A stretch of DNA of 64,000 nucleotides from an uncultured Candidatus Saccharibacteria bacterium (lineage in GTDB: Bacteria > Patescibacteriota > Minisyncoccia > Phycocordibacterales > DATDWN01), in the NCBI GenBank assembly GCA_964597675.1, contig CAZQYV010000004.1:5590-69589 (forward strand), given 5' to 3'. The notes under the pieces are model-generated. The model had not been told where the DNA came from. It did no database searches and saw only the letters and a list, made by a program, of their open reading frames with translations. Position 1 is the first letter of the stretch. The number at the start of each line of letters is the position of its first letter. The translations under genes and the position numbers were made by a program. This document shows, piece after piece, positions 18,215 to 21,118 of the stretch.

Positions 18215-21118
18215 ATGAAGGAATATAACCATCTAAAAATAGAAAAAAAATGGCAATCGGTATGGGAGAAGAAAAAGATATTTCAGGCAAAGGATTCTGG
18301 CAAGAAAAAATTTTATGGTTTAATCGAGTTTCCATACCCCTCTGGTGATGGGCTCCATGTCGGACATGTACGAAGTAATACAGCGATGGATATTATTGCC
18401 CGTAAGCGCCGTATGGAGGGCTACAACGTGTTGTATCCCATCGGCTGGGATGCATTCGGCCTACCGACAGAAAACTATGCAATCAAGACAGGTATTGCTC
18501 CAGACAAGGTTACCAAGAAAAATACAGACACATTTAGACGGCAATTAAAGTCTTTGGGTTTTTCGTTTGATTGGTCTCGGGAAATAAACACAACTGATCC
18601 AAAATACTACAAATGGACACAGTGGTTGTTTTTGCAATTTTTGAAACATGATTTGGCATACAAGGCAAAAATAAATATCAATTGGTGTCCAAAAGATAAA
18701 ATCGGTTTGGCAAATGAAGAGGTGGTCAATGGGTGTTGCGAGAGATGTGGTACGCCAGTGGAAAAGAGAGAAAAGGAACAGTGGATGCTTCGTATTACAA
18801 AATACGCAGATCGACTTGATAAAGATCTCGACACAGTTGATTATCTTGAAAAGATCAAAGTGCAACAGAGAAATTGGATTGGGCGATCCGAGGGAGCAGA
18901 AATTGAATTCAAAATTAAAAAATCAAAAGTTAAAGATGGGGAATCCGATGAGATGATTGGAAAGGTTACAGTATTTACAACCCGCCCAGATACAATATAT
19001 GGAGCGACATATTTGGTTTTGGCACCAGAAGTTGCAGAGGGATTTATGATTCAGGATTCAGGATTTAGGAGTGGGGTCAGGAATGCAGATGAGTTGAAAA
19101 AATATATTCGTGATGCACGAGCAAAAAGTGATATAGAACGTGGAGATGGTAGTAAAGAAAAAACTGGTGTGGAAATAAAAGGGATTACTGCTATCAATCC
19201 AGTAAATAATGAAGAGATTCCTGTCTTTATTGCTGACTACGTCCTTGCGACATATGGTACGGGTGCAGTTATGGCTGTCCCTGCCCACGACGAACGTGAT
19301 TTTGCTTTTGCTAAGAAATATAATCTGCCAATACGACAGGTTATTGCACAATATATAGTTGATAAGAAATTTCCTCCAGTTAAAGAACAAAAAAATGTTG
19401 CCCGAAGTACAGTTCATGCAATTGTAAGAAATCCAAAAACAAATATGTATTTATGTTTGGAATGGAAGCATTTTCCATGGACCACATTTATTGTTGGTGG
19501 TGTAGAGGATGGTGAAAGTGCTATTGAGGCAGCACAGCGAGAGGTGTATGAAGAGACTGGTTATAAAAATATAAAAGTAACATACGACTTTTCAGATATT
19601 GTCTGTACGACATATAATGCCGCACATAAGAAAGAGAATCGTATTGCATACACCACATGTGTGTTTTTTGATCTAGTAAATGAGGAAAAAGATGAAATTG
19701 ATGTTGCTGAGAGTGATAAGCATGCACCCATCTGGCTTGAGCGTAAGGACATTACTGAAGCACGAATGACATGTGCTGAATTGCCGGTCTGGTTACATTA
19801 TATTGATACTAAAAACACACCTGTATACACAGGTTCTGGTGTCTTAATAAATTCGGGGGAACTTACTGGTGTATCGTCTGAAAAAGCCACCAATGAAATT
19901 ATAAAGCATGTTGGTGGCAAAGTCGTCACTAAATTCAAACTTCGAGATTGGGTATTTTCACGCCAGCGATACTGGGGTGATCCAATACCTGTGGTGCATT
20001 GTGAAAAATGTGGAATCGTACCACTACCTGAAAAGGATCTACCACTGAAACTTCCAAAAGTAAAAAAATATCAACCAACTGATACGGGTGAGTCGCCACT
20101 TGCTGGTATCGTATCGTGGGTTAATACAAAATGTCCAAAATGCAAAGGTAAGGCAAAACGTGAGACAGATACTATGCCCCAATGGGCTGGGTCATCATGG
20201 TATTTTCTTCGATATGCTGATCCAAAAAACAGCAAGAAATTTGCCGACCCAAAGAAATTAAAGTATTTCACTCCTGTAGACTGGTACAATGGTGGTATGG
20301 AGCACACTACTCTCCACTTACTTTACTCACGTTTCTGGCATAAGTTTTTGTATGATTTAGAACTGGTGCCAACTTCTGAGCCGTATCTAAAACGGACATC
20401 ACATGGGATGATATTGGCTGGCGGGGGGGAAAAGATGTCAAAATCAAAAGGTAATGTAATCAACCCAGACACAATTGTTAAAACATATGGTGCAGATACC
20501 CTACGAATGTACGAAATGTTCATGGGGCCATTTGATCAACCGATTCCATGGGCCGAGGAAAATATTATCGGGGTTCGTCGTTTTATCGAGCGTCTTTTCC
20601 GCTTGGAAAGAAAACTAGGTACATCAAAAAAAATTTTTGACACTGCATCATATAAAAAATTAGAAAACACACTTCACAAAACAATTGAAAAAGTTGGAAC
20701 AGATATAGAAAGTATGTCATTTAATACTGCTATTTCATCCATGATGATTTTGGTTAATGAAATGGAGAAAGCAGAGATGATAAGAACAAAAGATTTTGAA
20801 TTGCTTATTCGTATTATTTCTCCGTTTGCACCACACGTTGCAGAGGAAATGTGGTCACTACTTGGGCATAAAACACTTCTCGCCCTAGAAAAATGGCCAG
20901 AGGCAGATAGGGCAAAAATGGTTGATTCGGAGATGACAATCGCTATTCAAATCAATGGCAAAATTCGGGCAGAATTGACTGTTTCGGCTGATGCTACGGA
21001 AGCAGAGATTGTGGATAAGTCAAAAGAGATCCCGGAGGTTTCCAAGTGGTTTGTGGGCAAAGAGGTCAAGAAGGTCATTTATGTGCCTAAAAGACTGGTA
21101 AATTTCGTTATTTTGTAA
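18215..21118 (+). CDS. leuS: Leucyl-tRNA synthetase with an inserted NUDIX hydrolase domain (aa ~378-540)
   Basis: Class I aaRS motifs are present (HVGH, [8 protein letters not shown]). The CP1/editing region is present. A ~160-aa insert between ...YNLPIRQVI and [10 protein letters not shown] carries a perfect Nudix box, [23 protein letters not shown]. The C-terminal anticodon-binding region is intact. Confidence 0.9.
   Translation: [967 protein letters not shown]

Follow-up and report, generated by a model that had tools for sequence, protein, structure and literature searches.

The leuS gene of the window (the whole 64-kb stretch of DNA that was analysed) codes for a bacterial-type leucyl-tRNA synthetase (LeuRS) with a real Nudix hydrolase domain nested inside it. 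The explanation we tentatively favour is that the product is a working LeuRS carrying an autonomous, active Nudix module, similar to RppH and ApnA hydrolases, in a surface loop of its CP1 editing domain. The module would be a complete Nudix pyrophosphohydrolase, competent for catalysis, from a clade that had not been characterised before; it would fold and act alone, and aminoacylation and editing would proceed independently of it.

The leuS reading frame (18215..21118, + strand, as all features below) encodes 967 aa without interruption. It is matched by the TIGR00396 leuS_bact equivalog model at 984.4 bits (cutoff 548.4) in two stretches, with the insert lying between them. The original prediction, made from this DNA alone, held that the LeuRS motifs are kept, and all of them could be located: the HIGH signature of the class I catalytic site, here HVGH (18356..18367, aa 48-51), the T-rich motif TTRPDT (18977-18994, aa 255-260) and the 15-residue GTG...AHDxxD motif (19256-19300, aa 348-362) in CP1, the KMSKS loop (20432..20446, aa 740-744) and the Anticodon_1 helical domain (20660..21001, aa 816-929; PF08264, 75.7 bits). 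H48, G50 and H51 of HIGH as well as KMSKS are invariant across 97 aligned sequences. The part of CP1 that precedes the insert (18869..19345, aa 219-377) belongs to the LeuRS editing domain PF13603, whose match at aa 219-387 covers profile positions 1-150 of 185 with 191.4 bits. CP1 and the catalytic core resume after the insert (19835..19978, aa 541-588; from GVLINSG to a further conserved stretch of 13 residues), and these residues align to residues 376-443 of Thermus thermophilus LeuRS. The window LeuRS shares every class I and CP1 editing motif with the canonical bacterial enzymes of T. thermophilus (1h3n/2byt), Escherichia coli (4aq7/4arc) and Neisseria gonorrhoeae (6q89). No tRNA genes adjoining leuS were found within the 64-kb window.

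The inserted module (19346..19834, aa 378-540) is 163 residues long and includes an N-terminal extension, the Nudix fold and a C-terminal helix; the extension is conserved in free-standing homologues too. The canonical LeuRS structures have a CP1 loop of just 12-19 residues where the window LeuRS has an enzyme domain: the spacer at the insert site measures 12 aa in T. thermophilus (363->376) and 19 aa in N. gonorrhoeae (371->391) versus 158 aa in the window LeuRS. The Pfam NUDIX core PF00293 (19403..19753, aa 397-513) scores 46.7 bits in the full protein and 50.9 bits in the insert alone (gathering cutoff 21.1). The PF00293 match splits that of PF13603, with profile positions 1-150 before it and the remainder of the editing domain after it. 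The 23-residue Nudix box Gx5Ex7REUxEExGU lies at 19496..19564 (aa 428-450), exactly where it had been predicted, and is the sole Nudix box of the window. In the AlphaFold2 model of the insert alone (pLDDT 94.5) the insert forms a compact Nudix fold of the alpha/beta/alpha type, and in the full-length model (pLDDT 88.8) both CP1 halves are confident.

Several other identities were rejected. Neither the protein nor the insert matched a Pfam family for Hint/intein splicing or homing endonucleases, and the compact Nudix fold of the insert is likewise at odds with an intein or homing element. PADLOC, which screens for anti-phage defence proteins, gave no more than a generic Nudix similarity of 19 bits to the candidate PDC-S07. 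A recent foreign origin was discarded as well, since the base composition of the insert is unremarkable and shows no signal across it.

A word-indexed search with the insert alone returned two relatives only, while full-length and exhaustive HMMER searches showed that the domain is not rare. Of the 120 closest LeuRS clusters, about 118 have the copy at this position (site B). Patterns derived from the insert retrieved 48 species genomes, 45 of which have the LeuRS-Nudix architecture; those with names are Patescibacteria. Judged by this survey, the Nudix-bearing LeuRS is the standard form across a large lineage of Patescibacteria (candidate phyla radiation). The original prediction knew of no described LeuRS with an embedded Nudix domain. 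Our literature search agrees, as it found no description of any aminoacyl-tRNA synthetase (aaRS) with a nested Nudix domain, but the architecture is not a peculiarity of one gene. GenBank and UniRef contain entries with the same architecture that are named simply as LeuRS, for example KKR43508.1 and UniRef100_A0A0G0QTG5. As such proteins are labelled only “leucine--tRNA ligase” or “class I tRNA ligase family protein”, a likely second activity goes unseen when the metabolism of these reduced genomes is reconstructed.

In two close relatives (P0045 and P0079) the domain is replaced by a spacer of 6-7 residues, which in P0045 reads FGGDTS. Both fall within the insert-bearing clade, share 76% identity with the query when the insert is left aside (only P0003 is closer) and have the same gene order as the window, DUF5671-leuS-sigma_r4/HARE-HTH-DUF8128, with YceG present too in P0079. 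By sequence and synteny, this is a clean loss of the Nudix domain, and LeuRS can therefore do without it. Other LeuRS relatives have Nudix domains at two or three different sites, in one to three copies; such variable insertion sites and copy numbers argue against a need for exact geometry. Similarity of the inserts is also decoupled from that of the LeuRS bodies: bodies 72-75% identical may carry inserts sharing 28-37% identity, while bodies of 66-68% identity carry inserts of 48-52%. Unrelated inserts, namely an alpha/beta-hydrolase (PF06821), a HAD and a DUF559 endonuclease-like domain, occupy several sites in the same family. These patterns suggest that the Nudix module has been gained, lost, duplicated and apparently also replaced among LeuRSs.

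The same Nudix clade includes free-standing genes of about 160 codons at loci apart from leuS, so the enzyme can function with no synthetase attached. One of these free-standing homologues neighbours genes for HIT and CYTH proteins, two further NUDIX proteins, dUTPase, dNK and RNase H. Considering the free-standing forms together with the clean loss, the module is very probably autonomous and dispensable for LeuRS. Within the 150 clusters that match the insert best, the identifiable fusion partners are all aaRSs (about 111 LeuRS and four ProRS-type). In the latter the domain is nested in class II ProRS, after the anticodon-binding domain, as judged from a single full-length sequence and three shorter proteins; the host lineage is probably archaeal, with low GC content. 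The independent nesting of the same clade in ProRS points to a link with synthetases generally. On the strength of this second host, functional coupling to synthetase by-products, as distinct from mere co-expression, is conceivable, though we consider it doubtful.

The alternative that survives best is that the domain is a generic house-cleaning hydrolase of the nucleotide pool or of metabolites, which settled in a permissive loop of a gene that is essential and expressed constitutively in a streamlined genome. It would gain nothing beyond co-expression and would have no mechanistic tie to aminoacylation, Ap4A or tRNA. The unrelated hydrolase-type inserts of the same LeuRS family fit such accretion without functional coupling, and so do the gain, duplication and apparent replacement of the module, the failure of insert similarity to track the body, the clean loss in close relatives and the presence of free-standing homologues amid nucleotide-salvage and house-cleaning genes. 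It is harder to reconcile with the restriction of identifiable hosts, among the top 150 clusters, to aaRSs of two unrelated classes, with retention of the site-B copy in nearly all of the closest LeuRS clusters, and with the nearest characterised relatives being RppH and ApnA hydrolases and not MutT-type dNTP sanitisers. We regard this alternative as rather unlikely.

The nearest characterised relatives were sought by sequence, profile and structure. Searched against PDB sequences, the insert gave a best E-value of 0.003, so it has no characterised close homologue there; its profile reached Dcp2 (1.7e-6) and lupin Ap4A hydrolase (3.3e-6). In Foldseek, E. coli RppH (including the Ap4A complex 7sp3) was the best characterised match, mostly with query-normalised TM scores of 0.62-0.66, followed by CT771 and Ndx1, with many Nudix subfamilies scoring almost equally. 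The top structural match of all, 2azw, is a MutT/nudix family protein of Enterococcus faecalis solved as a structural-genomics target; it shares 13-16% identity with the insert and, its function being uncharacterised, permits no functional transfer.

Membership in the curated NCBIfam Nudix subfamilies was also checked, and the insert missed all of their cutoffs. Its best matches, all sub-threshold, are RppH models, as they are for most of the scanned free-standing forms. The RppH equivalog was nonetheless far away, with 26.1 bits for the insert and at most 39.8 bits for free-standing homologues versus a cutoff of 118. The MutT 8-oxo-dGTPase (TIGR00586, 18.7 bits, cutoff 97.9), ADP-ribose pyrophosphatase (NF008003, 17.2 bits, cutoff 248) and NADH pyrophosphatase NudC (NF001299, 17.3 bits, cutoff 158) were rejected, together with NudE, NudI, NudB, YtkD and RppH itself, for none of which was an NCBIfam score near the cutoff for either the insert or the free-standing homologues. 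E. coli RppH (NudH/YgdP; 4s2x, 6vcr, 7sp3), an RNA 5'-pyrophosphohydrolase and Np4A-cap/ApnA hydrolase, differs in being a free protein and in sharing only 13-17% identity with the nested insert (26 bits, where the equivalog cutoffs start at 116); the insert clade has an invariant set of its own (R397, W417, K472-x2-N475-R476, E499, W507). The ApnA hydrolases (T. thermophilus Ndx1, an Ap6A hydrolase, 1vc8; lupin, human and Plasmodium Ap4A hydrolases) match mainly in the box region, and no family-level membership emerged from the sequences.

ApnA have been described as by-products of aaRSs that Nudix Ap4A hydrolases remove (PMC4734340). The original prediction suggested that a cis-fused Nudix domain could hydrolyse Ap4A made by the synthetase. 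The idea is plausible, since the nearest characterised enzymes are RppH, Ap4A/Ap6A hydrolases and Dcp2 and since the domain is nested in ProRS too; action on a nucleotide-linked editing by-product, suggested alongside, found no support. By analogy with these nearest neighbours, NpnN or 5'-polyphosphate compounds are our tentative choice of substrate class. The most likely chemistry would be hydrolysis of nucleoside-5'-polyphosphate linkages. Candidate substrates are free Ap3-6A/Np4N, which synthetases produce from aminoacyl-adenylate and ATP, or, alternatively, the same polyphosphate groups on RNA 5' ends. Nesting would provide obligatory co-expression and nearness to the source of such by-products.

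A more specific version couples the module mechanistically to the synthetase that hosts it (LeuRS in the CPR, ProRS in a probably archaeal lineage of low GC content) and has it either destroy that enzyme's own Ap4A/Np4N or strip Np4N or triphosphate from RNA or tRNA 5' ends; it seems unlikely to us. If it were true, the translation apparatus would possess a built-in “alarmone or cap eraser”, and selection on the coupling would account for the module having been gained, duplicated and replaced repeatedly.

An enzyme acting on the 5' end of tRNA or another RNA is improbable. Here an RppH-like module would remove a 5'-triphosphate, a diphosphate or an NpnN/NAD-type cap from RNA held by the synthetase. 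RppH and Dcp2 are indeed among the nearest neighbours in sequence and structure, and the LeuRS and ProRS hosts both bind tRNA. The CP1 domain of LeuRS handles the tRNA acceptor end, which adjoins the tRNA 5' end. Several insertion sites in LeuRS and the one after the anticodon-binding domain of ProRS are, however, a poor fit to a fixed 5'-end geometry, and the free-standing forms and the close relatives devoid of the domain speak against this role as well. Moreover, mature bacterial tRNAs already have 5'-monophosphates, which are made by RNase P.

Returning to the favoured reading of an active ApnA/RppH-like module, its catalytic competence can be judged from conservation. No part of the protein is less conserved than the insert, with a median identity of 43% versus 63-81% for the LeuRS body. 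A strict Nudix box is nevertheless present in 109 of 118 insert-bearing relatives. Across 119 sequences (the query and these 118 relatives), E443, E447 and G449 are 100% conserved, E446 97%, R442 96% and E434 94%. A second set, R397, W417, K472, N475, R476, E499 and W507 together with an aromatic residue at 467, is 93-100% conserved. Position 467, located 17 residues past the box, is aromatic in all sequences (tyrosine in 58 and phenylalanine in 60 of the 119). For asymmetric Ap4A hydrolases of the NUDT2 type, Dunn et al. (1999) reportedly gave as a criterion a tyrosine located 16-18 residues beyond the box.

Comparison of the insert with 95%-identical orthologous DNA revealed ten synonymous changes and one nonsynonymous change. 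In the lineage of the window, omega is 0.025 for the insert (binomial P versus neutrality 1.5e-6) as against 0.065-0.088 for the body. Conservation and substitution pattern together strongly suggest that the insert is under selection for catalysis, and they agree with the earlier view of a functional chimera and not a pseudogene. One subclade has a partly degenerate box, with E434Q and with A, M or S in place of R442, as well as E446Q once, so catalysis may not be universal. Site-A copies in LeuRS and many free-standing forms share this variant box.

These variants are an argument for a non-catalytic module, that is, a pseudo-enzyme serving as a nucleotide-binding sensor, a regulator or a CP1 brace and modulating editing or aminoacylation; the domain also lies about 15 residues past the editing-site aspartates. 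We consider this very improbable. The full box is intact in the type found in the window, and the metal-binding E443, E446 and E447 are 97-100% conserved even when variants are counted. Conservation is centred on the catalytic helix (low omega by itself cannot separate this possibility from catalysis), and the clean loss leaves a normal short loop, showing that CP1 needs no brace. Finally, an artefact (chimeric assembly, pseudogene, intein or mobile insertion), for which nothing speaks except the unusual architecture, is refuted by the uninterrupted reading frame, a 97%-identical protein on three contigs (the two places shown are different samples), the recurrence of the architecture in most of the species genomes, the unremarkable base composition and the strong purifying selection on the insert.

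Synthetases are among the best-studied enzymes, and the architecture of bacterial LeuRS is regarded as settled. A second, apparently active enzyme within the proofreading domain is here the normal, apparently undescribed state of a whole major uncultured lineage. It offers a natural test of whether ApnA made by synthetases require a dedicated means of removal on the spot, a new Nudix clade whose members occur free, nested and in several copies, and a case of enzyme-in-enzyme nesting with clean natural controls, the insert-less orthologues in the same synteny. The ProRS-Nudix proteins may represent a convergent solution.

Two known systems invite comparison. In bifunctional NadM-Nudix (NMN adenylyltransferase/ADP-ribose pyrophosphatase, 2qjo) the fusion is end-to-end and involves another Nudix subfamily, whereas the LeuRS domain is nested; the corresponding model NF003790 was matched by one free-standing homologue only, at 18.9 bits versus a cutoff of 403. 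IleRS with a GNAT domain (NCBIfam NF040702) is likewise a class Ia synthetase with an added enzyme domain, but the synthetase, the added domain and its position are all different.

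The window's leuS gene (18215-21118, forward strand) is a single long ORF of 967 aa whose product carries an entire Nudix fold, its catalytic box intact and under selection, in a CP1 (editing domain) loop of an otherwise canonical leucyl-tRNA synthetase (LeuRS). The bacterial LeuRS model TIGR00396 matches in two stretches (984.4 bits, cutoff 548.4). The protein retains HIGH, KMSKS, the T-rich motif, GTG...AHDERD and the anticodon-binding helical domain, and it has all the defining features of bacterial LeuRS that computation can check. The Pfam match to the LeuRS editing domain (PF13603) ends at profile position 150 of 185, directly ahead of a NUDIX domain (PF00293, aa 397-513, same strand) scoring 46.7 bits in the full protein and 50.9 bits in the insert alone, with a gathering cutoff of 21.1. 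The insert spans aa 378-540 (nt 19346-19834, forward strand), its 23-residue Nudix box spans aa 428-450 (nt 19496-19564, forward strand), and the insert likewise has every feature defining the Nudix superfamily that can be checked by computation. In solved structures the same CP1 loop has 12 residues in T. thermophilus LeuRS (363->376) and 19 in N. gonorrhoeae LeuRS (371->391), versus 158 in the window protein. The original prediction, which placed a Nudix domain and its box in exactly these ranges, in a normally short loop of a LeuRS retaining its catalytic, editing and anticodon-binding motifs, was borne out by the search it proposed with PF00293 and synthetase models: the NUDIX domain lies inside the LeuRS match.

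AlphaFold2 modelled the insert alone with a pLDDT of 94.5 and the full-length LeuRS with a pLDDT of 88.8 and pTM of 0.77, the CP1 segments on either side of the insert being confident. Conservation was evaluated in 119 insert-bearing sequences (the window LeuRS and 118 relatives). No segment of LeuRS is less conserved than the insert (median identity 43% vs 63-81% elsewhere), and its catalytic helix and box are nearly invariant: G428 (100%), E434 (94%), R442 (96%), E443 (100%), E446 (97%), E447 (100%) and G449 (100%). The REx2EE glutamates, whose loss in close homologues would have pointed to a fortuitous box, are 97-100% conserved. Residues specific to the insert's own Nudix clade, which has both nested and free-standing members, are also conserved: R397 (100%), W417 (93%), K472 (99%), N475 (96%), R476 (99%), E499 (99%) and W507 (100%), with an aromatic residue at position 467 in 118/119.

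Comparison of the window leuS DNA with a 95.3%-identical orthologue of its own lineage (insert 19346-19834 vs L055:4132-4620 on a relative's contig) gave 10 synonymous and one nonsynonymous difference within the insert, corresponding to an omega of 0.025, with 0.065-0.088 in the rest of the gene. Such a pattern has a binomial P of 1.5e-6 under neutrality and indicates that the nested domain is selectively maintained. In the same pair, dS in the insert (0.099) is about half that of flanking leuS (0.21-0.22; Poisson P ~0.009), which could be chance, recent recombination or synonymous-site constraint.

The nested-Nudix LeuRS is widespread and is no artefact. A 97%-identical protein is recorded from three contigs, with different samples behind the two locations shown. 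When 1.84 billion representatives were searched exhaustively with HMMER, 352 clusters matched at E <= 1e-3; LeuRS or LeuRS fragments make up about 111 of the best 150. The survey of relatives called for by the original prediction found PF00293 in all but two of the best 120 LeuRS clusters (53-97% identity; named members are Parcubacteria, Paceibacterota, Nomurabacteria and Minisyncoccia), while 45 of the 48 loci retrieved by pattern from a single genome of each species have a Nudix match with same-strand LeuRS sequence on both sides. Examples in GenBank and UniRef (KKR43508.1, OGJ09679.1, UniRef100_A0A0G0QTG5) are named plainly leucine--tRNA ligase. Three short ORFs, P0002 (153 aa, on a 37.7-kb contig), P0192 and P0251, start at an internal Met of an 11-residue stretch; the last two extend across the Nudix domain to ...NS and P0002 ends within it. 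Split or frameshifted leuS genes are one possible explanation, incomplete gene calls another.

Two LeuRS proteins, P0045 (808 aa; L050:2635-5061 and L051:1024-3450) and P0079 (811 aa; L049:1196-3631), have a spacer of 6-7 residues (VI-FGGDTS-AVYTG) where the Nudix domain would be. This is a clean secondary loss, because outside the insert both are 76% identical to the window protein (only P0003 is closer), both share its gene order (DUF5671, leuS, sigma70_r4/HARE-HTH, DUF8128, and in P0079 also YceG) and a neighbour-joining tree built from LeuRS bodies (no bootstrap) puts both within the insert-bearing clade. The nested Nudix is very probably dispensable for LeuRS in nature. These orthologues constitute natural deletion controls.

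In this lineage, LeuRS is a hotspot where enzyme domains become nested. Three Nudix insertion sites could be told apart: site A separates the N-terminal catalytic half from CP1, site B is inside CP1 (the window's own) and site C is behind the LPxxLPxV...ESPLA segment (P0256). Some relatives carry two copies (P0124, P0005, P0012, P0075, P0146) or three (P0123, P0126, P0181, P0313). Some also harbour an alpha/beta-hydrolase (PF06821; P0041, P0127, P0143, P0099), a HAD domain (P0054) or a Vsr/DUF559-like endonuclease-like domain (DUF559; P0099). In an alignment of 121 LeuRS sequences, insert and body similarities are incongruent: bodies 72-75% identical bear inserts 28-37% identical, and bodies 66-68% identical bear inserts 48-52% identical. 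Free-standing clade proteins of about 160 aa, encoded by separate genes at loci away from leuS, are mixed in among the members of one insert subtype (50-54% identity). Together with the incongruence, this suggests that the module was replaced in situ or was captured and released more than once. That insert subtype, a paralogous one, has a variant box, Gx5Q for Gx5E (E434Q), co-varying with a change of R442, the residue preceding the first metal-binding Glu, to A, M or S; the three metal-binding glutamates (ExxEE) are mostly retained. The variant occurs in nested domains (P0016, P0055, P0084, P0087, P0104, P0113), in most site-A copies (P0005, P0012, P0041, P0075, P0146) and in free forms (P0145, P0170, P0205, P0237, P0249). 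Judging by these sequence comparisons, the nested domain is evolutionarily mobile. One free-standing member (L053:8001-8507) lies in a dense nucleotide-housekeeping cluster with HIT, CYTH, two other NUDIX, dUTPase, dNK/thymidylate kinase, nucleoside deoxyribosyltransferase, RNase H, RecJ and ArgRS genes. On another contig (L052), 4 kb separate a free-standing PF06821 gene from a free-standing member of the Nudix clade.

The clade has a second host. P0248 (643 aa; L058:2906-4837) is a family-I prolyl-tRNA synthetase (ProRS; TIGR00408, 585.8 bits vs a cutoff of 437) with a class II core (105-276), an anticodon-binding domain (295-379), NUDIX (398-515) and ProRS-C_1 (574-642). Its Nudix domain is 31% identical to the window insert (BLASTP 4e-21) and has the clade signatures and a variant box. 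P0174 (39% identity overall), P0240 (49%) and P0244 align to P0248, P0174 and P0244 across both the anticodon-binding and Nudix domains, and P0315, from the 90% cluster of P0174, has a weak HGTP_anticodon match. By these matches the ProRS-Nudix architecture is found in at least four clusters at <= 50% identity, with few sequences. The 8.5-kb contig of P0248 (27-31% GC) encodes an L15/L18e-family ribosomal protein whose sole NCBIfam match is archaeal L18e, and is likely archaeal, DPANN-like. Among the best 150 clusters, with 18 unclear matches classified, all identifiable non-Nudix partners of the clade are aminoacyl-tRNA synthetases (aaRS).

Literature searches turned up no paper describing a Nudix nested in an aaRS, in agreement with the original prediction, which knew of no such LeuRS. 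The nearest architectural precedent, NadM-Nudix, is an end-to-end fusion, whereas the Nudix of the window LeuRS is nested. The architecture is real, widespread and selectively maintained, is built from known kinds of domain and is apparently undescribed.

The insert is probably an active, autonomous pyrophosphohydrolase. It missed all NCBIfam cutoffs for RppH, MutT, ADPRase, NudC and other curated Nudix subfamilies. In presumed working it is closest to RppH/NudH and hydrolases of dinucleoside polyphosphates (ApnA, NpnN), and independent comparisons agree weakly on this substrate class. E. coli RppH, including its Ap4A complex, was the top Foldseek match among characterised proteins (query-normalised TM-scores mostly 0.62-0.66); the insert profile best matched Dcp2 and lupin Ap4A hydrolase among PDB sequences; and the best NCBIfam matches of the insert and most free-standing forms scanned were RppH models, far below threshold. 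The conserved basic R397, K472 and R476 would fit polyphosphate binding. aaRSs generate ApnA as by-products, which Nudix Ap4A hydrolases remove (PMC4734340). Since ApnA come from aaRSs and two unrelated synthetases host the clade, we favour a predicted NpnN or 5'-polyphosphate hydrolase functionally associated with synthetases. The many insertion sites and copy numbers argue for a diffusible substrate over a precisely positioned tRNA end. Nearly as likely is the main rival, a generic house-cleaning enzyme hitch-hiking in a permissive loop, which gains support from the occurrence of unrelated hydrolase inserts within the LeuRS family and from the frequent gain and loss of the nested domain. The interpretation in the original prediction is supported in part: an intact, selected Nudix in an otherwise canonical LeuRS stands, degradation of Ap4A made by the synthetase is plausible, and the analysis found no support for action on an editing by-product. 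The module's function is directly assayable.

An ARAGORN scan of the 64-kb window, whose overall GC content is 39.8%, found neither tRNA nor tmRNA genes. Conserved housekeeping synteny surrounds leuS (14682-26589): YchF GTPase, a PGDYG protein, a PNPOx-like protein and DUF5671 precede it, and sigma70_r4/HARE-HTH, an ORF at the position of the relatives' DUF8128, YceG/MltG and MnmA follow. The DUF5671-to-YceG stretch is common to the window and three relatives' loci (L049, L055, L057).
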